Virus record (IMG/VR): IMGVR_UViG_3300009419_000013
Span: 1 to 64,000 of that record
Direction: 5' to 3' (one strand)
Source of the DNA: a virus
DNA: 64,000 bases
Part shown: piece by piece, positions 2 through 29,585 of the stretch
Numbering within the stretch: position 1 is the stretch's first letter
Layout: each line of letters begins with the position of its first letter
Notes under the pieces: generated by a model
The model's input: the letters and a program-made list of their open reading frames with translations, nothing else
Told to the model about the DNA's origin: nothing
Databases searched by the model: none
Translations under genes and position numbers: made by a program

Positions 2-2986
2 TATTATATTAAATGGGAAACTAATGTTTATGAAAATGACAATCTTATTTATTCTGATGTTCTTAATCTGGAAGGAAAAAGGGTCTATATCTCATTCGAT
101 TCGAGATCATTGGGAGATACATTGGCTTGGATTCCCTATGTAGAGGAATTTAGAAAAATCCATAACTGCGATGTTATAGTTTCAACTTTTCTTAATTATC
201 TATTTGCGAATCAATATAAAAGCATAGAATTTGTAAATCCTGGTGATATTGTTAATAACATATATGCACAATATAATATTGGTTGGTATTATGACGATAA
301 GGGTAATGTTGATTATGATAGGGTACCCAACGATTTCAGAAAACAACCTTTGCAGAAAACAGCAACTGATATATTAGGTTTAGAATATAAAGAAATTAGA
401 CCGTTACTTAATTTACCAAAGACTAGCAAAAAGAAAAAAGTTGGGATAGGTATACATTCAACAGCTCAATCAAAATACTGGAATAATAAATATGGATGGC
501 AGGAAGTTGTTGATTATCTTTTATCGATGGGATATGAGGTCATGTTATATTCGAAAGAGAATGACGGATATATGGGTAATTATCATCCGTCAGGAATATC
601 CAAATTTGAAGGTGATGGATTATCAACGTTAATTGATGATTTATCTACCTGTGAATTCTTTATCGGTTTATCCAGTGGACTTTCTTGGCTAGCTTGGTCC
701 GTCGACATACCGGTTATTCTCATATCAGGATTCACCGAAAAATATTGTGAACCATCTATTGGAACATATAGAATAATAAACGAGGATGTTTGTCATGGAT
801 GTTTTAACAGGGAAAGACTTGATGCAGGTGATTGGAATTGGTGTCCTGATCATAAAAATACTGATAGAATGTTTGAATGTACAAAAAGTATAAAATCTAG
901 CCAGGTAATAAAGGAAATTAAAAAAATTATAATGGGCGATAATGTCGTTGAAGTTGAATCTGTTGAATCTGTTGAATCTGATGATAGCATAACTATTGTA
1001 TTGTCGCATGCGGATAATCAATGGAGAAAGAATTTATTGAGGGAGTGTATCGAAAAAATAAGAGGCGAAATAATATTATCTTCAAATTACCCTGTAGATT
1101 CAGATATACAGGAATTATGTGATTGGGTTTTATATACCAAAAACAATCCCTTGTTATTGAAAGATGAGTTTGAGAAATATGACGTCAGCTATAATTATTG
1201 GCATTTTGATGAAAATGGTAGAAAAGTATATTCCCCGATGGAATACGAGCATGGTTATGCAGCATATACATTAATTCAGAATGGTATTAAATTGGCAAAT
1301 CAACTAGGAAAGAAAAAAATTCACGTAATAAATTATGACTATATTATAGATAATCAAACAATATTAAGAAATAACAAAAAGCTTGATGATTTCGATTGTG
1401 TATTTTATTTCTATGATGACAATACCTACGATTTTAATTCGTATTGTAGTGGATTTTTCTCTGGTAAAATAGACGTATTAGATTCCTTCTACGGTAAGTT
1501 TATGTCAAAGGATGATTACTATACTAAAAATAACGTGAATGTTCAGCTTGAAAAAAATCTGTACGATTTTTATAAATCTTCAGAATTTAAAATATTTACC
1601 GATAAATTTAGTGTTTTAAAAAAATTAAACGTAACGAATAGAGAGGGAGTATTAATGTTTGCTAATTCCGAAGATTTCAATAGGTTTAAATATATTAGTG
1701 ACAAATACGAATGCGACAAGACATCGAGCCACGAATATCATAAAATATATCCGGCCATATTAGATCCGATGATCAATGATGAATTTTCATTATTTGAAAT
1801 AGGAATAGATAGAGGTAAATCTGTAAATCTATGGAGAGAATACCTAAAGAATGCCAAAATTTATGGTATGGATATAGGTCATGAATGGACTCATGACAGA
1901 GGAAAAATATTTAAAGGTGATCAGAATAATATAGACGACCTTAATTTCGTAATTGATAGAATAGATAGATGTAAGATCATCATAGATGATGGCTCGCATA
2001 AACCAGATCATCAGATAAAAACATTTCACCATTTGTTTGTAAATCTCCTTTCGGCTGGGGGTTACTATATTATAGAGGATATTGAAACATCATATTGGGA
2101 TCCTGCATCATTTTTATATGGTTATGAAATGGGATATCTAAATATAGTTGATTATTTTACTAAATTTAACCACCAGGTAAATTTTAAATATAATGGACAT
2201 CAGAATGAATTAAATATCGAATATATTAAATTTGCTTCCAACTGTATTATAATTAAAAAATATGATTCACCAGAGCAGGACAAGGACACTGACAATTCTG
2301 GTTTGTTCGATTCCTTTAATTGGGGTAACCAAACTAGAACATATAAAAATACGATGATAAACGAATTAATTACTGAGAATATCTATCAGAAATTTTTTAG
2401 CGTTGACTCGGGTGATATAGTTCTTGATATTGGTGCAAGTCTAGGACCTTTTACCTATTCGATATTAAATAAAAATCCTAAGCATGTATATTGTTTTGAA
2501 CCATATAATGAGTTTTTTGAAATATTGGTTAAAAATACGGAGGGCAAGCAAGTAACAAATATTAATGCTGGAATATCAAATAGTGATGGTACAGCGGATA
2601 ATGATAAGTTGCTTTTTAATTCTGATGTGAGCACACAATCGTCTATGAATAGTATAACATTTAAAAAATTTATAAACGATAACAATTTAGAAAGAATAGA
2701 TTTTTTAAAAACCGATTGTGAGGGAGGTGAGTATGAAATATTCAATTCTGAAAATTTTGATTATATAAAGAATAATGTCAAGAAGATATCTGGTGAATGG
2801 CATCTGAACGAGAATTATGAACCAGGTATAAAGGATAAATTTAGAAAATTTAGAGATCTTTATCTTAAAAATTTTGATAAATATGAAGTATTTTCCATCG
2901 ATGGTATAGATATTAAATGGGATTTATGGAATGAGCATTTTATTGAATATTATAATGAGGTATTGATATACATTGATAATAGGTAA
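2..2986 (+). CDS. Multidomain protein, 5'-truncated by the window: AAH/TibC-type (strand-loop-strand) O-heptosyltransferase + GT-like middle domain + class I SAM methyltransferase + FkbM methyltransferase
   Basis: Frame is open from base 2 (YYIKWETNVY...FDSRSLGDTLAWIPY). GT9-like motifs SLGDTLAW and FFIGLSSGLSWLAW; four-Cys iron finger CHGCFN...WNWCPDHK...FECTKSI; MTase motifs FEIGIDRG, IIIDDGSH, GGYYIIEDI; FkbM motifs VLDIGASLG, IDFLKTDCEGGEY. Confidence 0.8.
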   Translation, partial: YYIKWETNVYENDNLIYSDVLNLEGKRVYISFDSRSLGDTLAWIPYVEEFRKIHNCDVIVSTFLNYLFANQYKSIEFVNPGDIVNNIYAQYNIGWYYDDKGNVDYDRVPNDFRKQPLQKTATDILGLEYKEIRPLLNLPKTSKKKKVGIGIHSTAQSKYWNNKYGWQEVVDYLLSMGYEVMLYSKENDGYMGNYHPSGISKFEGDGLSTLIDDLSTCEFFIGLSSGLSWLAWSVDIPVILISGFTEKYCEPSIGTYRIINEDVCHGCFNRERLDAGDWNWCPDHKNTDRMFECTKSIKSSQVIKEIKKIIMGDNVVEVESVESVESDDSITIVLSHADNQWRKNLLRECIEKIRGEIILSSNYPVDSDIQELCDWVLYTKNNPLLLKDEFEKYDVSYNYWHFDENGRKVYSPMEYEHGYAAYTLIQNGIKLANQLGKKKIHVINYDYIIDNQTILRNNKKLDDFDCVFYFYDDNTYDFNSYCSGFFSGKIDVLDSFYGKFMSKDDYYTKNNVNVQLEKNLYDFYKSSEFKIFTDKFSVLKKLNVTNREGVLMFANSEDFNRFKYISDKYECDKTSSHEYHKIYPAILDPMINDEFSLFEIGIDRGKSVNLWREYLKNAKIYGMDIGHEWTHDRGKIFKGDQNNIDDLNFVIDRIDRCKIIIDDGSHKPDHQIKTFHHLFVNLLSAGGYYIIEDIETSYWDPASFLYGYEMGYLNIVDYFTKFNHQVNFKYNGHQNELNIEYIKFASNCIIIKKYDSPEQDKDTDNSGLFDSFNWGNQTRTYKNTMINELITENIYQKFFSVDSGDIVLDIGASLGPFTYSILNKNPKHVYCFEPYNEFFEILVKNTEGKQVTNINAGISNSDGTADNDKLLFNSDVSTQSSMNSITFKKFINDNNLERIDFLKTDCEGGEYEIFNSENFDYIKNNVKKISGEWHLNENYEPGIKDKFRKFRDLYLKNFDKYEVFSIDGIDIKWDLWNEHFIEYYNEVLIYIDNR
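953..979 (+). repeat. 9-bp tandem repeat (GTTGAATCT)x3 encoding a VESVESVES interdomain linker
   Basis: Read directly from the sequence. Confidence 0.9.
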
Positions 2987-2988
2987 TT

Positions 2989-3360
2989 ATGAAAATAGAG
3001 GTTTCAGTTGGTGAGATAGTAGATAAGCTATCAATATTAAATATAAAGAAGGATAATATACTTGACAAGTCAAAATTGAATAATATTATTAATGAGTTTG
3101 ATTATCTTTACCCGATAGTATTTGAGCACCTTTTAGTAGAACAAGAAGATTTTTACTCACTGTTGAATATAAATAAAAAATTATGGGAGATAGAGGACGA
3201 AATAAGATTGCTAGAAAATTCAAAAAAATTCGATGATGAATTTATAGAATTAGCAAGATCTGTTTATATAACTAACGACAAAAGAGCGGAAATTAAAAAG
3301 TATATAAATTTAAAATATGGTTCTATTTTTACCGAAGAAAAATCATACGAGAAATACTAA
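2989..3360 (+). CDS. DUF6165-like protein, commonly adjacent to glycosyltransferases
   Basis: IEVSVGEIVDKLSILNIK...LWEIEDEIR...FIELARSVYITNDKRAEIKKYIN...EEKSY signature. Confidence 0.7.
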   Translation: MKIEVSVGEIVDKLSILNIKKDNILDKSKLNNIINEFDYLYPIVFEHLLVEQEDFYSLLNINKKLWEIEDEIRLLENSKKFDDEFIELARSVYITNDKRAEIKKYINLKYGSIFTEEKSYEKY

Positions 3361-3371
3361 GAATATAAATT

Positions 3372-3409
3372 AAGAAAATGCTGGATCATAAGTCCAGCAT
3401 TTTCTTTTT
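3372..3409 (+). terminator. Rho-independent terminator
   Basis: AAGAAAATGCTGGA-tcataag-TCCAGCATTTTCTTTTT. Confidence 0.85.
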
Positions 3410-3410
3410 G

Positions 3411-3418: not shown

Positions 3419-3435
3419 CATAAATAATTAAAAAA

Positions 3436-5925
3436 ATGAGTTTCGTACCAGAAGATAAGTTTCCAAAGCCAACCACTCCTGTATATAATACCAGTGGTGA
3501 GCAATATAATCTATCTGATCAAAGATTTAATTATCATGATGGATTACAAAATACAGACAAAGTAAAGAGCTCATCGACTGATAATATATTCTCTACTCCG
3601 GAGGGTGCAATGGCTAGATCTCAGCAGATAGGTTGTGGCGGATATCATCAGGTATCAATAAACGGAGAAACTTTTTATAAACCGTGCGAAGACTCATCCT
3701 ATTATGATTTAAGAATAGAACAGCTAGATAGTGCATTAAACTTCACCTATATAGGTAATTATAGGGTTCTATCATGGGATAAACCTTTCGAGAACGTTAC
3801 TAAATTTAACGGATGGATAATAGATGCATCGAATAGTAATAACTCGGGATCCATATTAGATGCGAATGATATCGCAATAGATTTTAGATATAGTATAGAT
3901 GGTAAAAGTTGGTCATTATGGACAAACGTAGGTACTGCTTTAAATGGGCTAACTAATGAATTTTCAACTCTCTTTGATATAGCATTAAATCCTAATAATA
4001 AATTTTATCCTGAATTTAGATTTACCTCAGTTCTTATTAATGATGATGGTACTATAATCTATAATACCGAAGAACCTATAGATCCTACTATAGTTATAGT
4101 TTCTTTTGAATTGGATCTAGACTATGGTCCAACACCGGAGGTTGTTATATACAAGCCAGCGCCGGTTTGCACTAATGAGGTTTCATCCAGACCTGTTGTA
4201 TTTTCAAACTGTAATTTTACTTTTAATCCATATGCTGTTAATCGTGCTTTAAATCTATACCAGGATCTTAGTTTAATGGTTAATAATGTTTTTGGTCTAG
4301 AAGCAAATTATTATTCAATACAGCCACAAGCTAGAGGAAAGGATGTTATACTTAGGGAATACACTCTATTTAATGTAGTGGATGAGAAATGTGTTAAGAT
4401 AGTAGTTCCACAAAATCAGTTTCCTGACAATAAAATGAACTTTGATCCTTTTGGGCTCCAGTTTGAGGAACCTTTTGAAATACAGATTGATAAAAGGTAT
4501 TTCGAAAGTATATTTGGTAAGGGATCACAACCAAGGAAGAGAGATATACTTTATTTTCCTATTGCAAATAGAATATATGAAATAAATTCAACTTACCTTT
4601 TCAGGGATTTTATGAATTCCCCTGTTTACTTTAAAGTTGAGCTTAAGAAATATACTCCTAAGAGTAATACGTATTTTCAGGACCCTGCATATAAGGAGGA
4701 ATTAGAGGGAATATCTTTAACTACAAGTGATCTATTTGGAGTTGAAACTAGAGACGAAGAAACGAAAGCTACCAAGCCACAGCAATATGCAACCACGATA
4801 ACCCAATTGTCTCAGGATCCTATAAGATCATATATCTATAAGGAGCTTCAAACAATTGAATATGATCTAAATAATAACTGGACCATAGTTGCTAATAATT
4901 ATTATGATTTATCTGCATCATTTAATGATGATTCCGAATTCGGATATGATCCGGACAGATATAGAAATGCAATTAGATATAAATTCTTACCAAAATCTGA
5001 TTCGTCCACGGAATTAGCATTTACTACATGGTTTAATATAAGAAATTACTATGACAATCAGCAATTATTAAGAAGACCATATCCTGTAATAAACTTGACT
5101 CTAGAGAATTCTACCGATGATTTACTATACTTTAATTCATTCCCTAAAAGGCATAGACTTGAAAGCTGGCAATCATACGCATCAAATCCTAATGGATATG
5201 TAGCTATCAAAGGTGACAAACATCATTCAGGAGGATATCAGGTAGTCTCAGTTTTGGATGAATATAGGTTCACTGTTGTTAATAATAACACAGTTTTTTC
5301 CGAAGGAACCATAATATGGAGAATGCAAAAAGCACAAAGCCGAAATTTGATTAGCGGTTTATATCAGGATGTTGATGATTCGATAAAAGGATTCAGGGTG
5401 GATATAGTACATTCCGGAGTAATGGATGATACAGGTAACCAGTTTTTAGAGACTGGTAGTTTAGTTATAAGATTGAATGATACAATAATAAACTCGCCTC
5501 TACAATTTACACCAGTTTATGGTGATTGGTATTCAATCGTTGTAAACTTTTCCAATGTTTATAAACAGATTTCTGCAAATGTATGGGAAATGTCATATGA
5601 TCCTGTAAATCCTAATGAGCAGACCAGTAAACTTAACAAGGTTCATGAGGTCGTAAGAATGTTTACTGACCCTATATTGTTCAATGCTCCATCTGTAATA
5701 AATAACGATACAGCTAGTCCATTCTATGGTACTGATGATAATACATATAAAATATTCACTGGTCCAATATTCTTAACTAATATTAGATTATTTAAAAATA
5801 TGATAGATATAGATACACAGTCTACAGTTCTAAATCAGAATGTAGTTAGAGATGCACAATTAGCACACATAATAGATAACGCAAAACCATTATTAAAAGC
5901 ACCTAAGTTTGCTAGAAATAGATAA
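3436..5925 (+). CDS. Extended neck/head-closure protein with a central T4 gp14-like domain
   Basis: FGLEANYY...KDVILREY...FDPFGLQFEEPFEIQIDKRYFE...PRKRDILYFPIANRIYEI resembles gp14; lies upstream of terminase. Confidence 0.6.
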   Translation: MSFVPEDKFPKPTTPVYNTSGEQYNLSDQRFNYHDGLQNTDKVKSSSTDNIFSTPEGAMARSQQIGCGGYHQVSINGETFYKPCEDSSYYDLRIEQLDSALNFTYIGNYRVLSWDKPFENVTKFNGWIIDASNSNNSGSILDANDIAIDFRYSIDGKSWSLWTNVGTALNGLTNEFSTLFDIALNPNNKFYPEFRFTSVLINDDGTIIYNTEEPIDPTIVIVSFELDLDYGPTPEVVIYKPAPVCTNEVSSRPVVFSNCNFTFNPYAVNRALNLYQDLSLMVNNVFGLEANYYSIQPQARGKDVILREYTLFNVVDEKCVKIVVPQNQFPDNKMNFDPFGLQFEEPFEIQIDKRYFESIFGKGSQPRKRDILYFPIANRIYEINSTYLFRDFMNSPVYFKVELKKYTPKSNTYFQDPAYKEELEGISLTTSDLFGVETRDEETKATKPQQYATTITQLSQDPIRSYIYKELQTIEYDLNNNWTIVANNYYDLSASFNDDSEFGYDPDRYRNAIRYKFLPKSDSSTELAFTTWFNIRNYYDNQQLLRRPYPVINLTLENSTDDLLYFNSFPKRHRLESWQSYASNPNGYVAIKGDKHHSGGYQVVSVLDEYRFTVVNNNTVFSEGTIIWRMQKAQSRNLISGLYQDVDDSIKGFRVDIVHSGVMDDTGNQFLETGSLVIRLNDTIINSPLQFTPVYGDWYSIVVNFSNVYKQISANVWEMSYDPVNPNEQTSKLNKVHEVVRMFTDPILFNAPSVINNDTASPFYGTDDNTYKIFTGPIFLTNIRLFKNMIDIDTQSTVLNQNVVRDAQLAHIIDNAKPLLKAPKFARNR

Positions 5926-6726: not shown

Positions 6727-8547
6727 ATGAGTAATTTACCTGCAGCTGAACAGCAAGAAACCTCCTATTGGACAACCGCTAGGGTTGATGAGTTATTAAG
6801 AAGAGTTGATGAGGACGGACTTGATTACAAGGAAGTTGACAATCCTTTTCATGACCAAGATCCGGAGCTAAAAAGATCTAATATACTTTGGGAATATACC
6901 AGTGAAGAAATACTGGAAATGAAGAAGTGTGCGGAGGATGTTAGTTATTTTGCTAAATATTGTAAAGTAATGACTGATACCGGTTTAGATTACATACGTC
7001 TTAGGGATTATCAGACATCAGTTCTTAAGGAATATCAGAATCATAGATTTAATATATTCTTAGCCCCTAGACAGGTTGGTAAATCAATAACCTCATCCAT
7101 CATATTAGTTTGGTATCTTCTTTTTAACCATGATAAAAATGCGATGATTCTTGCTAACGTAGGTGATACCGCGGAGGAGTTAATGGATAAGATAAAATCC
7201 ATTATAAAGGGACTTCCTTTTTATATGAAACCTGGTATGGTTGTCAATAACGTTATGACAATGAGATTTGATAATGGATGCAGGGTATTAGCTAAAACTA
7301 CAACAAAAACATCAGGTATTGGTTTTACCATACATTTTCTATATATGGATGAGTTCGCTCATATTAATCCAAATTTCATGGAGGCTTTCTTCAGATCAAC
7401 TTACCCCACAGTATCATCATCCAAAGTTTCCCGAATAATAATAACATCAACCCCAAATGGAATGAATAAGTTTTATGACATTTATCAAGGTGCAATAACG
7501 GGGGAAAATAGTTTTAATCCGATTAGGGTTGACTGGTGGCAAGTTCCGGGTAGAGACGATGAATGGAAAAAGAGGGAAATTGGTAACTTAGGAAGTGAGG
7601 AATTATTTAATCAGGAATATGGTAATCAATTTTTAAGCTCATCTAGCTTACTTTTAGGTTCGGATGAATTAAAAAAGATTAGAAGAAATGAGGTTGAGTA
7701 TGAATGGAGGGAATTAAGCTCACTGCATTACGGTGATGTAAATTATGAGAATCTATTATGGCATCCAAAGTTTGATATAGATAAGTGCGATCAGCCCGGG
7801 AAAAAATTTGTTATCTCCATAGATTTGAGTGGTGGTGGTAATGGAGACTTTACGGTTATAAATATATTTAAGGTAACACCTTTACCTAAGTTCATAATAG
7901 AGAAAATAGAGGAATTTGAGGACGAAGCCGATTTTTTTGGCCTGGTCCAGGTTGGTGTATTCAGAGATAATGAAATAAAACTCGAAGAAGTGACAAAACT
8001 TCTACAGTTATTATGTAGCGAAATATTTACTGTTGATAGGGTTAAGATAGCTTTAGAGATGAATTATAAAGGTGAATTGTTATATGATAAATTAATGGCC
8101 AGGGATGACTTTTTTGATGAGATGTTTTTATTTACTAAACATACGGAGGCAGCTAGAATAATGAAGGTTGGTATAAAGTATAATGAGAAAAATAAAATGA
8201 AATATTGTGAGATGCTCAGGGGGCTAATAAAAAGTGACAGAATACTAGTTAATGATAAAAAATGGACCGTACCCGAGCTTTTTACTTTTGGCTTAAATAA
8301 TAGGGGAACATACTCCAGTCAGAGTGGCCATGATGATGTTGCAATGACGCTAGTCAATTTACCCGGCTTATTCGAGGGATATGATTTTAATCAATTAGTT
8401 GGCGAGGTGTTTGATGAGCTTGAGGATAATTCATATAAGGATCTTATAATAAGTAAACTTGAAGGAGGACAGATAAGCGAAGATGAAGGAAGAGGACCAA
8501 GTACTAAGGATGGAAGAATGTTTGGTGATTTTAATAACATGATGTAA
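6727..8547 (+). CDS. terL: Terminase large subunit (T4 gp17-like)
   Basis: LRDYQ, Walker A APRQVGKS, Walker B LYMDEFAH, ITSTPNG, FNQEY, nuclease SIDLSGG...GDF and GHDDVAM. Confidence 0.95.
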   Translation: MSNLPAAEQQETSYWTTARVDELLRRVDEDGLDYKEVDNPFHDQDPELKRSNILWEYTSEEILEMKKCAEDVSYFAKYCKVMTDTGLDYIRLRDYQTSVLKEYQNHRFNIFLAPRQVGKSITSSIILVWYLLFNHDKNAMILANVGDTAEELMDKIKSIIKGLPFYMKPGMVVNNVMTMRFDNGCRVLAKTTTKTSGIGFTIHFLYMDEFAHINPNFMEAFFRSTYPTVSSSKVSRIIITSTPNGMNKFYDIYQGAITGENSFNPIRVDWWQVPGRDDEWKKREIGNLGSEELFNQEYGNQFLSSSSLLLGSDELKKIRRNEVEYEWRELSSLHYGDVNYENLLWHPKFDIDKCDQPGKKFVISIDLSGGGNGDFTVINIFKVTPLPKFIIEKIEEFEDEADFFGLVQVGVFRDNEIKLEEVTKLLQLLCSEIFTVDRVKIALEMNYKGELLYDKLMARDDFFDEMFLFTKHTEAARIMKVGIKYNEKNKMKYCEMLRGLIKSDRILVNDKKWTVPELFTFGLNNRGTYSSQSGHDDVAMTLVNLPGLFEGYDFNQLVGEVFDELEDNSYKDLIISKLEGGQISEDEGRGPSTKDGRMFGDFNNMM

Positions 8548-8616: not shown

Positions 8617-11600
8617 ATGGCAAATAAGGTAAAAATAGACTATTCTCAATTCAGAGCATCTGGAGTCTACACACTTGAGTTTGACGCATCTCAGAATGTT
8701 ATATTAACATCACAAACGATAAGACTGGTTGTTGGGTTTTCTAACAAGGGTCCTTTTAATACTCCGGTTTATATACCGGATGTTACTACAATGATATCGA
8801 TATTTGGAGATGTTGATAGATCATTAGAAAACAAGGGATCTTTTTTCCAAAGATCTATATTAACATGTTTAAATACAGGTCCTGTTTTCGCGTTAAATCT
8901 TTTAAGATTAAATGATGATGAGGAGACTGCAAATCCCGATAAAGTTACATATCAATCATATTCACTTGATACTGAAGAGTATAACGGTGAGGTAACTAGT
9001 AGATTATATTCATCCTACTATAACAAGGAGAGATTTTGGTTCGCTGATCCTAATTACTTTCTTGCTACATTAAGTGTTGCCGATCAAGGTAAGTTATTTA
9101 ATTTAACTAATCTTGGTAAGTCTCCGATGAGTATAATTACCAGAAAATCTACTGATTCATCTAGACCTCTTAGAGGATATGATATTTTCGCAATTGATTG
9201 GTATGGTGCGGATAACGTACCTAGCTTTATGCACCCATATGACTATATGGCTGACTATTTCATTGATGTTATTGCAGTATTCGGTGATTGGACAAATTAC
9301 CAAGCATTATCACTGGATCCTAGATGGAGCACATATTTTACCGATAATGGATTCATAAAAAGTAGAATTGATAGTTTCCTATCTGAACCTGATGTATCTA
9401 TAGTTACCTCAGTTACTGGATGTATTATCCCTGATTTTGTTGACCTTAATGGTGTTACTCAATACATTCAAGTATTAATAAACAATGGCACTCCTTCTAC
9501 TGGACTATTTTGTGCAATAGATGAACAAGCTTTTGATGATATATGTGCTAATGGATCTAAGATAGATCTAGTAGGTAATCACCTTATTGATGAATTAACT
9601 GGTGATAGTGACTTAGCTACTCCTAGAATCAATTTCTTAAGCTATGATCAAGTTCTTGTTGCTGATTATCTTTATACACAAAATGTAATAGGTGTAACCG
9701 GAGCTACCGGATTCAACAGCGCTACCGGAGCAACAGTTTATACTACGGGAGCTAAAGTAGGTACTTTATATACATTAACTGGAAATTCAGGGGCAACAGC
9801 TGGTATCGTTCAGCAATCATTTTTACCTTACGATCCTAATGCATATGATGGTGGATTACACTATCTACAAACTAGCGGAGCATATGGAACAACAGCGGGA
9901 TATTTACAAAATGCAGCCAATGTTAATTCACTTAAGACTTTCTTAACGGTAACATCATCGAATGACGAAAAATTCATACTGGGTGTAGTTTCTGGATATA
10001 CTGGAGGTTTAACCGGCGCATTACTTAATCAATTTGCTGAGGCTGATTTGGTTAAACTTAAAGTTACTGGTACCAGAGACATTTCAGGAACTCTTAGAAT
10101 TTTCTGGACGCATCCATTAGATACATCATTCTATAGAGGACAAGGTATAACAGTTACTCCAACATTTAATTTAACCTCATATAATACGGGAGCTTCTGGA
10201 AGTAATCCTTCATTCTATACTAATGCTTACCAATTTGGTAATTCTGATTATCTTGATATCATCAACGTAGCTACACCTAGTGGAGTTACAGGACCAGGAG
10301 CACCTGCAGGAACATCAAATGTACTTGTCGGATATAACGCTTCCCCACTTTTCCAAGATAATAAATATGCTGAAATCACTGATGGAGATCTTGCTTGGAC
10401 CAGCGCGGATGGAACTTCCCTTAGATACCTAGGCTTTGAATCAACAGTTGATAAGGATCAGTTTAATATGGTTTATACCAGAGCATTTAGTAACGTATCA
10501 AGAGCTAACGAAACGATTACAAACATACCAGCATTTGCTAGCACTTATGCTTCAAATAATATAGGTCTTCCTGTAGGACCACAAAATTTTGACATAATTT
10601 CGCAGGAAGGTTCGATTAACCAATTTGTAGATTGTACCAAAATAGACGTTACCACATTCTTGGTTACATTGGATAGTAATAGTAATGTTCCATTCTCGGT
10701 AGGAGATTTGGTAGTTTCTACTGATCTTGATATATGTGAACCTGCTACAGGGAACAGACAAAGTAGATTAGCAAAGATAACTTCTGTTGCTATGACAACA
10801 ACTCTAGGAACATATAGAGTTACTTCTGCTAGACCGGTTCTTTATTATACATCAGGAACAGGAGTAAGAGTTCAAAAATTCAAATCTATTGCTCAGTTTA
10901 CAAGATCTTTTGATTTCAGTTATTTAAGTGGATTCACTATGAATGAATCACATAGACCAAACGGAAGTGATGCTAGGATTTCTGAAATATTGGATGTTAT
11001 GTATGACACCAATATAGCTAAAACACTGGCTGCTAAGGACGTTATATCATTCAGATACATCGTGGATACTTTCTCTGGTCAAATATTACCTAACTCTAAA
11101 TACCAATTAAGTAGATTGGCTAAGCTTAGACAACAGGCATTAGCATTAATCAACGCTCCTTCAATGGCTCAATTTAGAGCAAGTACGGATCCTAGATTTA
11201 CTGATGCGCCTACAGCTTCTAATCCATATCCAAGATTAAATACTGCTTATATTGTAGACGGTGGTAATTTATCACTAAACCCATCTTACACATTTAGTTT
11301 ACCTAGTGAGGATGAAGGAGCTAAATATGCTGCTTTTTATTCACCTTACATTACAGTAAGAGAAAATAATAGAAACGTGGAAGTTCCACCTTCTGCTTAT
11401 GTTTCTAATAACTTCCTAAGAAAATTTGCAAACGGGGAACCTTATGCAATTATAGCAGGACAGAAAAGAGGGGTTATTAGTGGAGGTAATATAGTTGGAG
11501 TTGAGTATGATTTTACTGATGAAGATAGAGGAAATCTTGAACCATTCGGAATCAACCCAATTATAAAAAGAAGAGGTATCGGAGTGGTTATTTTTGGTAA

Positions 11601-11970
11601 CCAAACTGCATATCAGCAAGTTAATTCCGCATTTAACCTTGTTCACGTTAGAGATTTACTAATCAGTGTAGAAAATGATGTACAAGAAATATTAGCAAAT
11701 TATCTATTTGACTTCAATGACGATTCTATCAGACTTGAAATAAAAACATTAGTAGATAACTATCTGGATGGTGTTAGAGCAGGTGGGGGTATTTATGCTT
11801 ATCAGACTGTTATGGATGCTTCTAATAATACACCTGCAATCATTGATATGAATATGGGTATAATTGACATCATAATCGAACCAGCTAGAGGTATACAGAA
11901 ATTCATTAATAGAATCACTGTTACCAGAACTGGCGGAATCGCATCAGGAGGATTTATACAATTTGCATAA
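8617..11970 (+). CDS. Tail sheath protein (gp18-like) with large insertions
   Basis: SGVYTLEFD...VVGFSNKGPFNTP N-terminus; YSPYI...VPPSAYV...INPII...IFGNQT...VHVRDLL...FDFND C-terminus. Confidence 0.92.
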   Translation: MANKVKIDYSQFRASGVYTLEFDASQNVILTSQTIRLVVGFSNKGPFNTPVYIPDVTTMISIFGDVDRSLENKGSFFQRSILTCLNTGPVFALNLLRLNDDEETANPDKVTYQSYSLDTEEYNGEVTSRLYSSYYNKERFWFADPNYFLATLSVADQGKLFNLTNLGKSPMSIITRKSTDSSRPLRGYDIFAIDWYGADNVPSFMHPYDYMADYFIDVIAVFGDWTNYQALSLDPRWSTYFTDNGFIKSRIDSFLSEPDVSIVTSVTGCIIPDFVDLNGVTQYIQVLINNGTPSTGLFCAIDEQAFDDICANGSKIDLVGNHLIDELTGDSDLATPRINFLSYDQVLVADYLYTQNVIGVTGATGFNSATGATVYTTGAKVGTLYTLTGNSGATAGIVQQSFLPYDPNAYDGGLHYLQTSGAYGTTAGYLQNAANVNSLKTFLTVTSSNDEKFILGVVSGYTGGLTGALLNQFAEADLVKLKVTGTRDISGTLRIFWTHPLDTSFYRGQGITVTPTFNLTSYNTGASGSNPSFYTNAYQFGNSDYLDIINVATPSGVTGPGAPAGTSNVLVGYNASPLFQDNKYAEITDGDLAWTSADGTSLRYLGFESTVDKDQFNMVYTRAFSNVSRANETITNIPAFASTYASNNIGLPVGPQNFDIISQEGSINQFVDCTKIDVTTFLVTLDSNSNVPFSVGDLVVSTDLDICEPATGNRQSRLAKITSVAMTTTLGTYRVTSARPVLYYTSGTGVRVQKFKSIAQFTRSFDFSYLSGFTMNESHRPNGSDARISEILDVMYDTNIAKTLAAKDVISFRYIVDTFSGQILPNSKYQLSRLAKLRQQALALINAPSMAQFRASTDPRFTDAPTASNPYPRLNTAYIVDGGNLSLNPSYTFSLPSEDEGAKYAAFYSPYITVRENNRNVEVPPSAYVSNNFLRKFANGEPYAIIAGQKRGVISGGNIVGVEYDFTDEDRGNLEPFGINPIIKRRGIGVVIFGNQTAYQQVNSAFNLVHVRDLLISVENDVQEILANYLFDFNDDSIRLEIKTLVDNYLDGVRAGGGIYAYQTVMDASNNTPAIIDMNMGIIDIIIEPARGIQKFINRITVTRTGGIASGGFIQFA

Positions 11971-14510: not shown

Positions 14511-16073
14511 ATGGCAGACCAGAAACTAATATCGAGCATATTTGATCTCACTAAAAATGTGGATAAACTTTCTGGTGACATCAAAAAGAATGCTGCCAGT
14601 ACATCCGAGTTGGCTGCAGCTCAGGAAAAAAGTGCGGAAAGCACTAAAGATCTAGGTAAAGTAGCTGATAGCATAAAGGGATTAGATCTAAAAAGTTTGA
14701 AGGGTGAATTTTCACAGCTTACCAAAAGTATTGGTGGTCTTGACTTTAAGGGTCTTTCTGGTGATCTTAAAGCACTCGACTTCAAAGGATTATCTAAGGA
14801 TTTAAAATCATTGGACTTTAAGGGATTAACACAAGGAATAAAAGGTCTCGATCTTAAGGGAATTGTTAGTGGTGCTAAAGGATTAGATATTAAAGGGCTT
14901 TCTGGATCATTGGGAGATATTGGATCCCTTAAAGATACAATATCAGGATCACTTGGTGGTTTGCTAAAAGGCGGTAAGGGACTTTTAGGTGCATTCGAGA
15001 AGGGAGGACCAGTCAACAAAACAGGACAATACCTTGTCGGTGAAAAAGGACCGGAAATAGTTAAACTACAGCAAGGATCTGCTGTTATACCCAATAACAT
15101 ATTAAAAGCAAGACAAGATATTTTAAAAAAACTTGGAACTGATGCTCCGAGCGAGAAGGAAATATCGAATAAAAGGAAGGAACTTCTTTCATCAGATCCC
15201 CTATATTATGACGGTGAACCAGGCTGGTTAGAGGAAGATATTAATTCATATCTGGAAGGTCTCCAGGGAAAATCAACATCTGAATTTACACAGGAGGACC
15301 TAAAGAAATTAACCAAACCAGTAGATGCTAAAGCTGAAGCATTAGTAAATCCACTGGAAGCTCAAATTAAGGCTTCGAATAAAGAAAAAAATAAGGAAGA
15401 TAAATCCAAATTGAAAGAAAAAAAGGATGGATTATTTTCTAAAATTTTTGGAAAGAAAGATAAAAACGAAACCGAGGGTGAGGGAAAAAAATCAAAGTTT
15501 TCCGATCTGATATCTAAGGGTGGTGACCTACTAAAAGAAAACAAGGATGCCCTGAAAGGAAAGGCTTCCGAATTAGGATTAAGCGGAATGTCTGATATTC
15601 TTAAATCTAAAGGTGCTCCTGAAGGGATCATGAAATCCATCAAAGGTTTAAATAAGAAATCCGGAGGAGGTGAATCAGGTGGATTATTAAGTTCTGTTAA
15701 GGGATTGGTTAAGAAATCTGGAGATGACGAATCAGGTGGAATTAAGAGCGATATAGTTAAGCTATCTAAGAAGGAGAAAAAAAGTGGTTCGCCTAACGAA
15801 CCAATGCAGACGTCGCCAAATCAGGATACTAATGTTAAAAAAGCTGCAGAGGGAGCAATATCTAATAAAGCATCAGAATCATCCAATGCTGAAACAGTCA
15901 AATCCAAATCGGATTCAGCATCTTCGTCATCCGATGGAGGGGCAGGTCAAGTAACTGGAGCTGACCTAGCTGAAATAAAAATTCTTTTAGCAAAAATGGC
16001 AGCTAGTTTGGAAGGTACTTTGAGTGTTTCCCCATTAGAATCGCCATTTAGACCGGATTCTAGAAAATTCTAA
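14511..16073 (+). CDS. Tape-measure-like protein
   Basis: Amphipathic 12-aa repeats; FEKGGPV...YLVGEKGPEIV...GSAVIPN motif typical of tape-measure C-terminal regions; follows the chaperone pair; AATATATA promoter variant at 14491. Confidence 0.6.
   Translation: MADQKLISSIFDLTKNVDKLSGDIKKNAASTSELAAAQEKSAESTKDLGKVADSIKGLDLKSLKGEFSQLTKSIGGLDFKGLSGDLKALDFKGLSKDLKSLDFKGLTQGIKGLDLKGIVSGAKGLDIKGLSGSLGDIGSLKDTISGSLGGLLKGGKGLLGAFEKGGPVNKTGQYLVGEKGPEIVKLQQGSAVIPNNILKARQDILKKLGTDAPSEKEISNKRKELLSSDPLYYDGEPGWLEEDINSYLEGLQGKSTSEFTQEDLKKLTKPVDAKAEALVNPLEAQIKASNKEKNKEDKSKLKEKKDGLFSKIFGKKDKNETEGEGKKSKFSDLISKGGDLLKENKDALKGKASELGLSGMSDILKSKGAPEGIMKSIKGLNKKSGGGESGGLLSSVKGLVKKSGDDESGGIKSDIVKLSKKEKKSGSPNEPMQTSPNQDTNVKKAAEGAISNKASESSNAETVKSKSDSASSSSDGGAGQVTGADLAEIKILLAKMAASLEGTLSVSPLESPFRPDSRKF
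14739..14918 (+). repeat. Five degenerate 36-bp (12-aa) repeats, LDFKGLSxDLKx
   Basis: LDFKGLSGDLKA/LDFKGLSKDLKS/LDFKGLTQGIKG/LDLKGIVSGAKG/LDIKGLSGSLGD. Confidence 0.85.
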
Positions 16074-16149: not shown

Positions 16150-16728
16150 ATGGCTCAAGATGATAGTATAATAAAATTGCCAGTTGGGTATAGCCACAGG
16201 AAGAATCTATCTTTTATAGATTCCGAATTTTTGAATCTTCCTTATTGGAGAATAGAAAAAGACGAGCATGATAGTGAATCGTATCACGTCTATGTAGCTG
16301 AAAATCTTGAATCTATAATAAGTCATAGAAGTGACGAAATATATTTAGAAATGGCTGGGGTCTGGTCAAAAAATTCACACTGTAAAAGAATGCAAGTTGG
16401 TTGTCTAATTGTCAAAAATAAGTCAATTATTTCTGATGGTTATAACGGTTCACCCTCCGGGTTTCCGAATGTGTGTGAATCAGATACAAATGATACCTTG
16501 CCATACGTTTTACATGCCGAGGCAAATGCAATAACAAAGTTAGCCAGGGGAACTCAAAGTTCCAATAATTCAACATTATATGTTACATTATCGCCATGTT
16601 TTGAGTGCTCCAAATTAATAATACAATCTGGAATAAAGCGGGTTTTATTTTCCGAAGTATATAGGAAACCTGAATCGATTGCTTTTTTAGCAGAGGCCGG
16701 AATAGAAATAATCAAATTGACCAAATAA
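16150..16728 (+). CDS. dCMP deaminase
   Basis: SHCKRMQVGC, GYNGSPSG, HAEANAI, TLSPCFECSK zinc motifs. Confidence 0.93.
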   Translation: MAQDDSIIKLPVGYSHRKNLSFIDSEFLNLPYWRIEKDEHDSESYHVYVAENLESIISHRSDEIYLEMAGVWSKNSHCKRMQVGCLIVKNKSIISDGYNGSPSGFPNVCESDTNDTLPYVLHAEANAITKLARGTQSSNNSTLYVTLSPCFECSKLIIQSGIKRVLFSEVYRKPESIAFLAEAGIEIIKLTK

Positions 16729-24240: not shown

Positions 24241-24246
24241 TCTATT

Positions 24247-25371: not shown

Positions 25372-26970
25372 ATGGCAGGTTTTGTAGATAATAATGATCC
25401 TTCTCAAACTCCGGTAATACAGAGAATTAGAGATTCTGTAAGAAAAATTAGTTCATTTGGTATGAAATACGATGACATGGTCATTCGTAATTCACAGGCT
25501 GTTGGTGTTACTGAGGCTGCTTTTCTTAATAAGAATAAGTCCAATGTCGAGGACGAAAGCATGCTATGGACCTTAGCTAAGCAGGATATATCATCCAGAC
25601 AATTTATAGGATATTTTGATAAGGACTATAAGGGAAAGAGAGACTATCTTAGAAAATTCTCATTAAATCCTGAAGTTGAATGGGTTCTTGATACCATATG
25701 TGACGAGGCAATATCTTATGATCCATCGAATTTCTTTGCTTATCCTGATTTCATAGATCTTAGCGACGTTAATGAAAAAATAAAGGAAGATTTATATGAC
25801 TCTTATAAAAAACTTTATGATGTTTGGGGATTTTCCGATGATATAACAGCTTGGCAATATTTCAGACAATTTATAATAGATGGATTTCTTGCATTTGAGA
25901 TAATCTATGATAATAAGGGTGATAATATAATCGGATTTAAGGAATTGGATCCAATTACACTTATACCTAGTGTGGAGAAACAAATAGATGGTAGCTATCT
26001 TAGCACCTGGACACAGTATCCTCAGGATCCCAAGAGAAAAAGAGTATTATATGATCCGCAAATCATCTACATATCATATGCTAAGGGTAATAGCATATCA
26101 AGAATTAGCTACATAGAAAGATTAATAAGACCTTATAATATTCTAAGAATTATAGAATATACTAGGGTTATATGGTCGGTCATGAATGCATCATTTAAAC
26201 TTAAGATGACCATTCCAATAGGAAGCAAATCCCAACAGAAGGGTATGCAAACTTTGGGTGAGTTAATGAGTATCTATAAGGAAGATATTCAGCTGAATGA
26301 TGATAGTGGTGAACTTACTGTGGATGGTAGACCTAAAATACAATTCTATAAGAATTATCTGATGCCTTCAGGTGTTAATGGTACACCAACTATAGAACCT
26401 ATAAATACTGAGGGTCCTAATCTTAATGATCCTCAGCCTTTATCATACTTCTTTGACAAGTACATCCTTGAATCTAAAGTTCCACCATCCAGATTTCATA
26501 ATCCTGATGGCGGAACAACTTCGCCATATTCAAATGGTGCGGAAGGACTTGATAAGGAGGAAATTAGATTTGCTAAATTTATATCTAGACTTAGATCGGT
26601 ATTTCAGGAGATATTACTAAAACCTTTATGGATACAGATGGTCAAGAAACATAAATCACTTGATGAGGATTTTATGTTTAAGAGTCAGCTTGGATTAGAT
26701 TACGTTTCTGATAACCCATTCAAATTAAATCAGGAGATGGATTTAATAAATAAAAGGAAGGAAGCAGTCGTTGCAATGACCGGATTAATGGGGGATGAGG
26801 AAAAACCATATTTCTCTAGCGCATTTCTTATAGAGACTTTTCTTGGAATATCTAAACAGGATATCGATGCTAATAAAGAGGCATTAGAAAGAAAAGAGAA
26901 GGAGAAGAAAAAAGAGGAAGGTAAAAAAGAAGAGGGTGGAGAAGAGGAAGCTCCAGAAGTAACACTATAA
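25372..26970 (+). CDS. Portal protein (T4 gp20-like), copy 1
   Basis: LNPEVEWVLDTICDEAI, FRQFIIDG, ELDPI, SYIERLIRPYN, KVPPSR, EEIRFAKFISRLRSVF. Confidence 0.9.
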   Translation: MAGFVDNNDPSQTPVIQRIRDSVRKISSFGMKYDDMVIRNSQAVGVTEAAFLNKNKSNVEDESMLWTLAKQDISSRQFIGYFDKDYKGKRDYLRKFSLNPEVEWVLDTICDEAISYDPSNFFAYPDFIDLSDVNEKIKEDLYDSYKKLYDVWGFSDDITAWQYFRQFIIDGFLAFEIIYDNKGDNIIGFKELDPITLIPSVEKQIDGSYLSTWTQYPQDPKRKRVLYDPQIIYISYAKGNSISRISYIERLIRPYNILRIIEYTRVIWSVMNASFKLKMTIPIGSKSQQKGMQTLGELMSIYKEDIQLNDDSGELTVDGRPKIQFYKNYLMPSGVNGTPTIEPINTEGPNLNDPQPLSYFFDKYILESKVPPSRFHNPDGGTTSPYSNGAEGLDKEEIRFAKFISRLRSVFQEILLKPLWIQMVKKHKSLDEDFMFKSQLGLDYVSDNPFKLNQEMDLINKRKEAVVAMTGLMGDEEKPYFSSAFLIETFLGISKQDIDANKEALERKEKEKKKEEGKKEEGGEEEAPEVTL

Positions 26971-26974
26971 TAAG

Positions 26975-28591
26975 ATGGCAGGATTTTTAGACTTTTTAAA
27001 ACCGAATCAATCAGCTTTAGGTAATATACTAAAGAATCTTGGAAACATATCAAAATTTGGTATGCAGTACGATGATATGGTTGTAAAAAATTCTCAGGCT
27101 ATTGGTAAGACTGAGGGATTTTTCTATAATCAGGATGGTAATGGGTTTACACAGAATGATGCTTTCTATTGGACATCATCGTATCAAGACACCAAGGTAA
27201 GAAAATATATTGCATATTTTGACCGTGATTATATCGAGAAGAGGAATTACCTTAGAAAATTTTCACTTAACGGTGAGATAGAGTTTATATTAGATACTAT
27301 AACTGATGAAGCAATAGTGTATGATGATAGAAATTATTTTGCTCAGCCATCGTTTATAAATCTTGATCTTAAGGATAAGGTAAAAGATAAGATCTCGGAG
27401 CATTACAATAAGATCTATAATGTATTTGGATTTCAGAACACAATACTTGGGTGGCAATATTTTAAACAGTTTCTAATTGATGGATTTCTTGCATTTGAAA
27501 TAATATATGATAGCAAGGGAAAAAATGTGATTGGATTTAAAGAATTGGACCCAACCTCTCTTCAGCCTATAGTAGAAAAGATTGGTGAGGAAGAACATAA
27601 ACAATTCTGGATTCAGTATCCAAAAAACCCACAAATGACCAGAAAGCTAACTAATGAGCAGGTCATTTATATTTCATATGCTAAGGGAAATATGATAACT
27701 AGAGTTAGTTATGTAGAAAGACTAGTTAGGTCATATAATATTCTTAGAATAATGGAGAATTCTAGAATTATATGGAACGTAATGAATTCGTCATATAGAT
27801 TGAAATTTATTATACCTATTGGTACACAGTCTCAACAAAAAGCAATGCAGAATCTTGGTCAGTTAATGTCGAATTATAAGGAGGATATTAATATAAATGA
27901 TTCTTCTGGAGAATTAACAATAAACGGTAAACCCAAAATTCAATTCTATAAGAATTATTTATTTCCTGAAAAGGACGGTCAGAGTCCTCAGATAGAATCA
28001 CTTAATCCTAGTGGACCTGATTTTAATGTTATGGAGAATGTGGTTTATTTCTTCAATAAGCTTAAAATGGATTCAAAAATACCTTATGCTAGATTTGCAT
28101 CCAGAAATAGTACACCAGGTAATTATCAGACAAGCATAGATCAATTGGAAAGAGATGAAATTAGATTTGAAAAATTTCTGAGAAGACTTAGATCAATTTT
28201 CCAAGAGATATTAACTAAGCCTCTTTATATACAGATGTGTCTTGATAATCCCGAATTATCAAGGGATAAGAACTTTAAAGCAAATATAGGTCTTAATTAC
28301 AATAGAGACAGCGAATTCGAGGAAATGGTTGAAATGAGTAATTACACTAAGAGAACTGAATTTATAACTGGACTTGGCGAACTTAAGGTTAAGATAGGCG
28401 AGGAGGAGAAGGGATATTTCGATAAGAACTTTTTAATACAAAGATTTCTTGGTATGAACCCGGATCAAATAAGAATGAATGAAAAGTATAAGGAAGCTGA
28501 AGCAAAACTAGCTGAAAAAGCAGGCGGTGAAGCACCACCTGAAGGAGAAGCACCAGCTGAAGGCGAGGAAGCACCTGAGGTAACCCTATAA
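26975..28591 (+). CDS. Portal protein (T4 gp20-like), copy 2
   Basis: Full-length paralog: EIEFILDTITDEAI, FKQFLIDG, KIPYARF, RDEIRFEKFLRRLRSIF; same C-terminus EEAPEVTL. Confidence 0.9.
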   Translation: MAGFLDFLKPNQSALGNILKNLGNISKFGMQYDDMVVKNSQAIGKTEGFFYNQDGNGFTQNDAFYWTSSYQDTKVRKYIAYFDRDYIEKRNYLRKFSLNGEIEFILDTITDEAIVYDDRNYFAQPSFINLDLKDKVKDKISEHYNKIYNVFGFQNTILGWQYFKQFLIDGFLAFEIIYDSKGKNVIGFKELDPTSLQPIVEKIGEEEHKQFWIQYPKNPQMTRKLTNEQVIYISYAKGNMITRVSYVERLVRSYNILRIMENSRIIWNVMNSSYRLKFIIPIGTQSQQKAMQNLGQLMSNYKEDININDSSGELTINGKPKIQFYKNYLFPEKDGQSPQIESLNPSGPDFNVMENVVYFFNKLKMDSKIPYARFASRNSTPGNYQTSIDQLERDEIRFEKFLRRLRSIFQEILTKPLYIQMCLDNPELSRDKNFKANIGLNYNRDSEFEEMVEMSNYTKRTEFITGLGELKVKIGEEEKGYFDKNFLIQRFLGMNPDQIRMNEKYKEAEAKLAEKAGGEAPPEGEAPAEGEEAPEVTL

Positions 28592-28619
28592 ATTATTAAT
28601 CTTTAATCTTTATTAATTT

Positions 28620-29585
28620 TTGAACTTAATAGATAAATTTGGATCTGTTAGAATATTGATTATTGGTGACGTGATGCTAGATCATTATGTTCATGGTAGC
28701 GTTACTAGGATATCACCGGAGGCACCTGTACCTATATTGGATGTAACTCGTTCCGAATATTATTTAGGTGGATCTGGTAATGTTCTACTGAACATAAAAT
28801 CAATGGGTGGTAAGGCCGATATAATTACCATGACAGGGGAGGACATTCATGGCGATATGATCGATGAGCTAATATCTGAACATAGTAATAACTCATTCGT
28901 TCTAAAGGATAGGTTAAGAAAAACAACATTAAAATCGAGATACATTTCAGGATCCAATCAATTATTCAGAGTTGATGAGGAAAGCAAAGATTATCTGGAT
29001 CCCTTATTGGAGGAGAAAATAATCTCAGTATTCAATGATACATTTCTTAATTATGATTGTATATTGATAGAGGATTATAACAAAGGACTATTGACACCAG
29101 GTATAATAAAGAATGTGATATCCAGATGTAATTCTTCAGGAATTCCAGTTATAGTGGATCCTAAGATTTTTAATGTACCTAGCTACTCTGGATGCAAATT
29201 ACTAAAACCTAATTTATACGAATTTTCCATAATGACAGGGTTAGATTGTTCAGATTTAGATCTTACTGAACTGGAGGTTCATGCTCGTCAATTTATATCC
29301 GATAATAATATTGATTCGATGCTAGTAACTTTATCTGATAAAGGACTGATTTACGTAGATGTAAATGAATCTGTTTATGATCCAGGATACCCGATGGATG
29401 TTTATGATGTTTCCGGTGCTGGAGATACTGTTATCTCTATTTTAGCATTATGTATGGTAAGCAATATAGATATTAAAAAATCATTATCCATCTGTAATAT
29501 AGCTGCATCCATAGCATGCTCGAAGTCCGGGATAGCTTCAGTTGGTATAAATGAAATTCTAAATTCCAAATTTTATACATTCTAA
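28620..29585 (+). CDS. rfaE1: D-glycero-beta-D-manno-heptose-7-phosphate kinase (RfaE/HldE kinase domain only)
   Basis: IGDVMLDHY...RISPEAPVP, GGSGNV, DYNKGLL, VDPK, KPN, DVSGAGDTV. Confidence 0.88.
   Translation: MNLIDKFGSVRILIIGDVMLDHYVHGSVTRISPEAPVPILDVTRSEYYLGGSGNVLLNIKSMGGKADIITMTGEDIHGDMIDELISEHSNNSFVLKDRLRKTTLKSRYISGSNQLFRVDEESKDYLDPLLEEKIISVFNDTFLNYDCILIEDYNKGLLTPGIIKNVISRCNSSGIPVIVDPKIFNVPSYSGCKLLKPNLYEFSIMTGLDCSDLDLTELEVHARQFISDNNIDSMLVTLSDKGLIYVDVNESVYDPGYPMDVYDVSGAGDTVISILALCMVSNIDIKKSLSICNIAASIACSKSGIASVGINEILNSKFYTF

Follow-up and report, generated by a model that had tools for sequence, protein, structure and literature searches.

The first 64,000 nucleotides of the IMG/VR record IMGVR_UViG_3300009419_000013 (here called the window; the record itself is a linear contig of 74,137 bp) begin inside a gene for a large fused enzyme and run on into the late genes of a phage. 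GC content is about 33% and the plus strand carries nearly all genes. By Pfam and PHROG matches the gene set is that of a distant T4-like myovirus: the structural genes include a neck protein, the large terminase, a 1,117-aa sheath protein, two tube paralogues and a tape-measure-like protein; the head genes comprise two tandem portal paralogues, a prohead protease and a gp23-type capsid protein; a gp55-type late sigma factor and a head-closure protein are also encoded, as are a ligase, a clamp loader and AsnB. CheckV gives the record a completeness of 27%, and the 74-kb contig amounts to about 20-27% of the whole phage genome. The fused enzyme heads the late structural block (neck, terminase, sheath, tube), and a kinase of the heptose pathway stands behind the portal genes. 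The explanation that fits these genes best, to which we give a probability of about 0.55, is that the source is a T4-like jumbo phage with a genome of roughly 370 kb whose multi-domain enzyme glycosylates the phage's own collagen-like fibre, while the kinase feeds the donor pathway.

The enzyme is encoded by an open reading frame (ORF) at 2-2986 that is open to the contig's first base, so that the gene is truncated at its 5′ end. Residues 1-310 match the BAHT family of protein O-glycosyltransferases (TIGR04414, hepto_Aah_TibC) at 274.3 bits against a cut-off of 200, over profile positions 58-374, and TibC itself (PDB 4rap/4rb4) at E 9e-58; the contig starts at the equivalent of TibC residue 70, inside the N-terminal beta-barrel that spans TibC residues 1-97. 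An earlier annotation made from the letters of the window (the sequence-only reading) had named an AAH/TibC-like domain with a four-Cys iron finger, two methyltransferases fused to it, a DUF6165-like neighbour and a stand-alone heptose-7-phosphate kinase behind the portals, and each of these identifications holds, the kinase with its best family (rfaE_dom_I) at a score below the cut-off. The family assignment holds as well: hidden Markov models place the domain with the protein glycosyltransferases, no lipopolysaccharide (LPS) heptosyltransferase model is listed for the window protein at E <= 0.01, and an identity as an LPS heptosyltransferase was rejected.

Between the BAHT domain and the methyltransferases lies a domain of about 290 aa (residues ~312-600, here MID) that the sequence-only reading had overlooked. 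An AlphaFold model built from a ten-homologue alignment (predicted local distance difference test, pLDDT, 76) has Foldseek matches to hyaluronan synthase, B3GNT2, SpsA, ColGalT1 and IspD at probability 1.0, with template-modelling (TM) scores of only 0.38-0.52 and with nucleotidyltransferases scoring equal to glycosyltransferases. The motifs NYDY/EYDN and EYEHGYA are conserved (alignment A1), and YDY/YDN was examined as a DxD-like candidate. MID is probably a second, glycan-extending glycosyltransferase. The MycF/TylF-like stretch that follows is only about 100 aa long (residues 603-700; 3ssm, MycF, E 1.9e-11; 8ia9, a demethylmacrocin O-methyltransferase, E 4.6e-10); Pfam TylF is unreported for the window protein and reported for its relative at locus L046. 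An FkbM-family methyltransferase closes the protein. The domain matches of this cassette and of the kinase are not due to chance.

Fused relatives indicate what the truncation has probably removed. A set of 5.8 billion proteins holds 1,563 of them (546-1,740 aa, E <= 1e-30); a GT4 domain opens nearly all of them, and among those of about 1,400 aa some combine GT4, GT9 and FkbM. By comparison with relatives, the ORF would be the 3′ three-quarters of its gene, about 420 N-terminal residues being absent, and the absent part is probably the same GT4-bearing part as in the sister phage G042 (described below), in whose homologue TIGR04414 aligns from position 39 and Pfam TibC_1st is unreported. The full enzyme would then read GT4, BAHT, GT-A, TylF-type methyltransferase, FkbM methyltransferase.

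TibC-type enzymes transfer heptose onto serine residues of proteins and assemble as dodecamers. In TibC, Asp-110 is the catalytic base, Thr-226 and Lys-230 contact the beta-phosphate and Trp-305 contacts the heptose O4; Arg-286 contacts adenine N1 and confers specificity for adenosine diphosphate (ADP), its replacement by Ala leaving activity abolished or largely diminished; Pro-300 (Ser-294 in Aah) sets C6 stereoselectivity; and Cys-339, Cys-342, Cys-358 and Cys-370 make up the iron finger (PMC4358343). In the window enzyme the catalytic Asp is D39 (Asp in 87/87 relatives), the donor contacts are T154, K158 and W229 (invariant or nearly so in all groups), and the iron-finger cysteines, judged by alignment, are C264, C267, C281 and C293 (again invariant in 87/87). 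The adenine contact is lost: Arg-286 is L210 here. The same position is Val, Leu or Ile in 50 of 52 phage members and 16 of 16 repeat-linked bacterial members of the clade described next, and Arg in 19 of 19 members outside it. The Pro-300 position is S224, and the thumb residues are Y190 and M191 where TibC has F265 and V266.

A tree of 87 BAHT domains joins all phage members and all bacterial members linked to repeat proteins in one clade (Shimodaira-Hasegawa-like approximate likelihood-ratio test, SH-aLRT, 99; stem 0.66), separate from the Aah-type, Paraburkholderia/Acidisphaera and Selenomonadaceae clades and with the bacterial repeat-linked group nested among the phage members; since the bacterial sequences were collected by scanning with two motif patterns derived from the phage proteins, relatives of the phage clade are favoured in the sampling. 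A relative is encoded on 245 viral contigs of IMG/VR. In GenBank, the only phages with one are Microcystis phage Mel-JY01, whose fusion protein of 1,226 aa shows 53% identity, and three uncultured phages of huge size. Bacterial members of the clade, which are the closest BAHT genes of stand-alone type (Methylococcales, Polaromonas/Burkholderiaceae, Binatia and others), adjoin a G-[STA]-[STA] repeat protein at 21 of 21 evaluable loci, meaning loci with enough flank and counting interrupted repeats. This partner is a small protein whose proline-free (GTS)n, (GSS)n or (GTA)n repeats come after a signal peptide or a lipoprotein signal, and all 17 measured repeat ORFs lie within 160 bp of the BAHT ORF. 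In the Aah-type, Paraburkholderia/Acidisphaera and Selenomonadaceae clades a repeat protein was found at none of 17 loci (180 kb).

The same kind of neighbour recurs in phages. A Gly-X-Y repeat ORF lies within 10 kb at 38 of the 80 IMG/VR loci found through BAHT; an independent search by way of the MID-FkbM part gave 80 metagenome loci, of which 35 have one in the fetched locus. Most of the repeats are rich in Ser/Thr, with up to 2,224 aa and up to 623 triplets per ORF. In the complete relative G001 (271 kb), the only two long collagen-like ORFs sit directly upstream of the cassette, with Ser/Thr at 83% and 44% of the X/Y positions. As a model for the window's phage G001 is inferior to G042, described below, being 25-53% identical and not colinear.

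Selenomonadaceae (Anaerovibrio and relatives; L109, L112-L120, L126) have a tandem pair of BAHT paralogues that keep Arg-286, and no repeat protein lies close to them. Five loci in species-representative metagenome-assembled genomes (MAGs; L083, L084, L086, L108, L110) have only phage-type fused BAHT genes and low GC; for L110 and L108 the placement on the tree is weak or lacking. A 254-kb contig in another bacterial MAG (L085, CAIWBA010000291.1) has TerL and a small-terminase-like gene as well as the phage cassette. These six (L083-L086, L108 and L110) look like phage DNA binned into bacterial MAGs, under conflicting labels: Bacteroidetes, Rickettsiaceae, Muiribacterium, Chloroflexota and Acetivibrio. 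With such conflicting labels, no host is named here.

The sister phage G042 was found with the kinase as query. It is a complete IMG/VR genome of 373,485 bp with a 127-bp terminal repeat, colinear with the entire contig (G042 coordinates exceed those of the window by about 10,510), and its backbone proteins are 95-99% identical to those of the window phage. The gene order there is a 2,700-aa fibre, a sulfotransferase, an APS-kinase-like and a nucleotidyltransferase-like gene, an LPS-type GT9, a GT4-BAHT-FkbM protein of 959 aa, DUF6165 and neck. The fibre gene lies about 5 kb upstream of the cassette, just beyond the point at which the window contig starts; its ORF closes across the terminal repeat to give 2,700 residues (Pfam Collagen E 7e-151). 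A 341-aa N-terminal domain is followed by three collagen-like segments with 535 triplets in total, in which Thr occupies X in 494 of 535, Y is Ser, Asn or Asp, and Pro is almost lacking; the C-terminus is 441 aa of IGGG-x-x-N repeats. These last repeats resemble the heads of trimeric adhesins. The GTN-GTS triplets also yield hundreds of N-G-T sequons (L230 3-5582 with L248), which makes N-linked modification conceivable on this fibre besides O-linked. The sulfotransferase, APS-kinase-like and nucleotidyltransferase-like genes stand between fibre and BAHT (L230 5635-7309), and by their presence suggest that G042 glycans are sulfated instead of, or besides, being methylated.

Against the near-identical backbone the glycosylation genes are variable: identity between window and G042 is 69% for the BAHT domain, 73% for DUF6165 and 75% for the kinase. 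In blastn, window positions 1-918 match at 71.5%, a gap follows, and 2414-64185 is then colinear at 89%. The gap is a 1.5-kb module of GT-A and TylF-like methyltransferase domains without counterpart in G042, so the window enzyme is the sister's BAHT-FkbM protein with an extra two-domain module inserted. A swap at the level of strains, this module on one side and genes for a sulfotransferase and for 3′-phosphoadenosine-5′-phosphosulfate (PAPS) synthesis on the other, would be a sign of an arms race over the surface of the virion.

Because the clade pairs with Gly-Ser/Thr-X proteins and G042 has such a fibre by its cassette, the acceptor is likely a collagen-like fibre rather than capsid or sheath, and by analogy with the sister the window's phage would carry a fibre gene too. 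Several observations weigh against this. In the 74-kb contig no ORF has a Gly-X-Y run of at least 5 triplets, and none, virion proteins included, has two consecutive G-[ST]-x triplets, so that no fibre is seen here; gene neighbourhood is the whole basis on which we infer the acceptor; and with 69-75% identity around the cassette against 95-99% in the backbone, the gene content upstream of the window's start cannot be assumed. The sequence-only reading had the phage decorate its structural proteins at large, with methyl-heptose on capsid, sheath and bulk virion proteins as a general glycan shield. The gene does head the neck, terminase, sheath and tube block, and mycobacteriophages reportedly glycosylate their capsid and tail-tube subunits (Freeman 2023, as cited in PMC12619734). 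Yet none of the contig's virion proteins has the repeat-type acceptor motif, and the partner conserved in bacteria and phages alike is a Gly-Ser/Thr-X repeat protein. What survives of that proposal is decoration of the phage's own virion, with a fibre as the favoured acceptor and capsid and sheath unlikely; bulk decoration is improbable, and the shield role is speculation.

The donor side is read from the kinase and its counterparts. Against TIGR02198 (rfaE_dom_I) the kinase scores 307.5 bits, under the equivalog cut-off of 345, and the next family, ribokinase, scores 61 bits. Residues 8-313 match Burkholderia HldA (PDB 4e84) at E 8e-48 over the whole length, with DVSGAGDT (the PfkB GAGD motif) kept; unlike HldE, the window kinase is stand-alone, phage-encoded and without an adenylyltransferase domain. 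Its position is conserved in G042, where it is 75% identical, and an identical kinase is present on a 97.7-kb contig. In 36 of the 80 IMG/VR loci an HldC-like and then an HldA-like gene come directly behind BAHT, with the large terminase 5-8 kb further downstream in 50 of the 80. The two genes encode a small protein of cytidylyltransferase fold and a 245-aa PfkB kinase (best NCBIfam models rfaE_dom_II and rfaE_dom_I, below cut-off), and their position gives independent support for heptose as the sugar. G042 carries gmhA (NF001628, 239 bits) and an hldC-like gene (rfaE_dom_II, 107 bits), both away from its cassette. In a beta-proteobacterial MAG (L124), a full-length HldE-type kinase and a nucleotidyltransferase stand directly upstream of BAHT and a G-[STA]-[STA] repeat protein; this is a bacterial counterpart of the phage cassette.

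Against a heptose donor made by the phage stand several facts. With Arg-286 replaced by Leu, the nucleotide, and conceivably the sugar, may differ from those of TibC. The NCBIfam scores of the kinase and the HldC-like proteins are below cut-off. With 27 kb between the kinase and the BAHT gene, the link between the two in the window genome is not one of adjacency. The 74-kb contig lacks gmhA (SIS_2), gmhB, hldC (CTP_transf_like) and hldD (heptose epimerase), and GmhB was not found even in the complete G042 genome. No kinase, SIS or nucleotidyltransferase gene is present in G001, a complete genome with BAHT and giant fibres, so that its heptose would have to come from the host or its sugar differs. 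Heptose is likely the transferred sugar and its nucleotide carrier is uncertain; "ADP"-heptose as the donor is not secure. The supply of ADP-heptose proposed by the sequence-only reading is thus kept as to the pathway kinase and left without a firm hold as to the ADP carrier, and of the companion pathway genes that it pointed to, all missing from the contig, gmhA and an hldC-like gene are represented by proxy in the sister.

An alternative keeps the fibre as acceptor and changes the sugar to one other than heptose, or the nucleotide to one other than ADP, the kinase serving for example to perturb the host's heptose or LPS pool. It would account for the clade-wide replacement of the residue that contacts adenine N1 in TibC (PMC4358343), for G001, for a kinase that is not beside BAHT in the window, and for the T4-like cyanophages that hold heptose genes without any BAHT. 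The contacts to heptose O4 (Trp-305) and beta-phosphate (Thr-226, Lys-230) are invariant, however; HldC-like and HldA-like genes stand directly behind BAHT in nearly half of the phage loci, and the sister has gmhA, kinase and an hldC-like gene. This alternative is unlikely.

In the favoured explanation, a glycosylated collagen-like fibre, the BAHT domain would act in the cytoplasm of the infected cell, late in infection. It would attach the first sugar, probably D-glycero-D-manno-heptose from a nucleoside diphosphate (NDP)-heptose, to hydroxyls of Thr/Ser in the Gly-Thr/Ser-X repeats, collagen-like but free of proline, of the fibre that the phage itself encodes. Extension of the glycan would then fall to the GT-A domain, probably together with the GT4 domain, and O-methylation to the two methyltransferases, in an order that we infer. 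The HldA-type kinase, probably late-expressed, would phosphorylate heptose-7-phosphate and so feed the donor pool, as would gmhA and hldC encoded elsewhere in the genome (seen in the sister).

The protein family and the setting of the gene also bear on two explanations in which the target is not a phage protein. The enzyme might remodel molecules of the host surface, be it LPS, an adhesin or some other protein of the host, to exclude superinfecting phages or to take the host over: surface adhesins of bacteria are what canonical BAHTs modify, the clade's partners in bacteria are secreted host proteins, and the sister cassette includes an LPS-type GT9. The enzyme is not of LPS-heptosyltransferase type, however, its gene lies within the late structural block of a lytic-type T4-like jumbo phage, pairing with the phages' own giant fibre genes recurs across many lineages, and the surroundings of the cassette showed no gene for a flippase or for export. 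The sequence-only reading had mentioned such remodelling as its alternative; no support for it was found, and we regard it as quite improbable. Still more doubtful, to the point of being very improbable, is a cassette whose product is no glycoprotein but a methylated oligosaccharide, free or attached to a lipid, or the glycoside of a small molecule. Natural-product and polysaccharide pathways are indeed where TylF/MycF and FkbM methyltransferases are best known, but the only activity known for the family of the priming domain is O-glycosylation of proteins (PMC4358343), the domains are all joined in a single soluble protein, and the conserved partner is a repeat protein.

The fibre-glycosylating enzyme proposed here has its closest known likeness in the TibC-TibA and Aah-AIDA-I systems of E. 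coli. These belong to the same family (TIGR04414; PDB 4RAP/4RB4) at 38-41% identity, the window enzyme keeping the catalytic Asp, the Thr/Lys/Trp donor contacts and the four-Cys iron finger. They act by cytoplasmic hyper-O-glycosylation of a repetitive protein encoded nearby, a likeness that for the window enzyme is proposed from the genes. Unlike them, the window enzyme is phage-encoded, is fused to extra transferase and methyltransferase domains, and falls in a separate clade with Gly-Ser/Thr-X partners, Arg-286 lost and a Y-M thumb instead of F-V; and whereas canonical plasmid copies adjoin AIDA-I-type genes, no autotransporter substrate lies by the window enzyme, which is followed by DUF6165, neck and terminase. 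Filaments of similar make are known elsewhere. Exosporium proteins of the BclA type in Bacillus and the fibrils of giant viruses, likewise collagen-like, are Gly-X-Thr filaments, heavily O-glycosylated and partly with methylated sugars, that form a hair-like layer; they use other glycosyltransferase families and other sugars, and belong to a bacterial spore or a eukaryotic virus, not to a tailed phage. Phage-encoded glycosyltransferases of mycobacteriophages are said, in work by Freeman et al. in 2023, to modify the C-termini of the phage's own capsid and tail-tube subunits. Targeting of own virion proteins is the likeness to the enzyme described here; the mycobacteriophage enzymes reportedly belong to unrelated families and involve no collagen-like fibre, heptose pathway or methyltransferase fusion. 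T4-like cyanophages (P-SSM2, S-CAM1, S-T4 and others) have genes for a PfkB kinase, a nucleotidyltransferase and a phosphoheptose isomerase, as the sister phage does, the window having the kinase; in these cultured cyanophages tblastn gave no BAHT homologue, and their kinases are only 26-30% identical to that of the window.

Table 1. Features of the window, with the matches or comparisons that define them
Feature	Position	Strand	Basis or remark
BAHT (TibC/Aah-type) protein O-glycosyltransferase domain	2..940	+	TIGR04414, TibC 4rap; start of N-terminal beta-barrel cut off
Module of GT-A and TylF-like methyltransferase domains (1.5 kb)	919..2413	+	Present in window, no counterpart in G042
GT-A / nucleotide-diphospho-sugar-transferase-fold domain (MID)	941..1801	+	Alignment motifs, predicted model, Foldseek
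MycF/TylF-like sugar O-methyltransferase domain	1784..2282	+	PDB 3ssm, 8ia9 matches
FkbM-family methyltransferase domain	2381..2986	+	TIGR01444 59.1 bits (cut-off 37.7), residues 807-916; PF05050 E 2.5e-11
DUF6165 protein	2989..3360	+	PF19662 41.2 bits (cut-off 27); directly after fused enzyme
Neck protein (gp13/14-like)	3436..5925	+	PF11649, phrog_679; opens the structural block behind the cassette
Large terminase	6727-8547	+	PHROG match, E 3e-52
Tail sheath	8617-11970	+	PHROG match, E 1.5e-118
Two tandem T4-type portal paralogues	25372-26970, 26975-28591	+	PF07230 E 3.5e-57, 2e-69
Late-promoter-like motif TATAAATT	28585..28592	+	One base off T4 late-promoter consensus; overlaps portal stop, 28 nt before kinase start
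HldA-type heptose-7-phosphate kinase	28620..29585	+	TIGR02198, PDB 4e84; starts 28 nt after second portal gene
AsnB-type asparagine synthase with glutamine amidotransferase domain	49609-51018		Amid late genes

The remaining features of the window (Table 1) concern the surroundings of the enzyme and the kinase. The DUF6165 protein is modelled as a four-helix bundle (pLDDT 90); the model had no informative fold match in the PDB, and the Atlas gives DUF6165 clusters only, mostly viral. The gene recurs beside the cassette, adjoining BAHT/FkbM at loci L079, L196 and L208-L210 and keeping its position in G042. The portal paralogues are diverged from each other; both are 98% identical in G042, and the distant G001 has a single portal gene that matches both. 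The late-promoter-like motif ahead of the kinase is weak evidence. An exact TATAAATA directly precedes the start codons of the portal gene, a 233-aa gene, the prohead protease and a 766-aa gene (25363, 36082, 40341 and 60689); across the window it is not enriched (16 found against 18 expected), and the individual copies before late genes are suggestive only. Other islands that vary between the window and G042 are the tape-measure-like protein (77%, 14511-16073), a dCMP deaminase (83%, 16150-16728), a 311-aa protein (82%, 53487-54422) and a 522-aa protein (only 48%, contig 63704-65269). Staggered blastn matches to G042 at 41265-41800 (prohead-protease-like gene) and 62172-62666 (766-aa gene) indicate internal tandem repeats. 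Exact-pattern scans of metagenome and viral collections for an upstream extension of the contig gave no match.

The window adds four things: the domain order BAHT-(GT-A)-(TylF)-FkbM, the swap of a module against a near-identical genome, the clade-wide loss of Arg-286, and an HldA kinase of canonical length behind the portals. In the library searched, no paper treats TibC-like enzymes of phages or connects heptosyltransferases with collagen-like proteins. A broader reading, tentative and somewhat less likely to hold than to fail, is that several tailed-phage lineages build half-micrometre, proline-free collagen-like fibres, with a Thr/Ser exposed in each triplet, which a dedicated and hitherto unrecognised branch of the TibC family hyper-O-glycosylates into a bottle-brush, with the chemistry swapped in the manner of O-antigens, and that the same enzyme-substrate pair makes the secreted (GTS)n glycoproteins of methanotrophs and Burkholderiales.

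If the proposed glycosylation of a collagen-like fibre is right, the TibC/Aah family, so far one of virulence-associated glycosylation, would be extended to collagen-like Gly-Thr/Ser-X acceptors and to viruses, and some of the long-unexplained heptose-pathway genes of large phages would gain a purpose. Since E. coli makes ADP-heptose, the proposal is directly testable by co-expression. Many environmental phages would be predicted to carry heavily glycosylated, methylated or sulfated fibres, and such fibres would affect host recognition, particle stability and surface adhesion.

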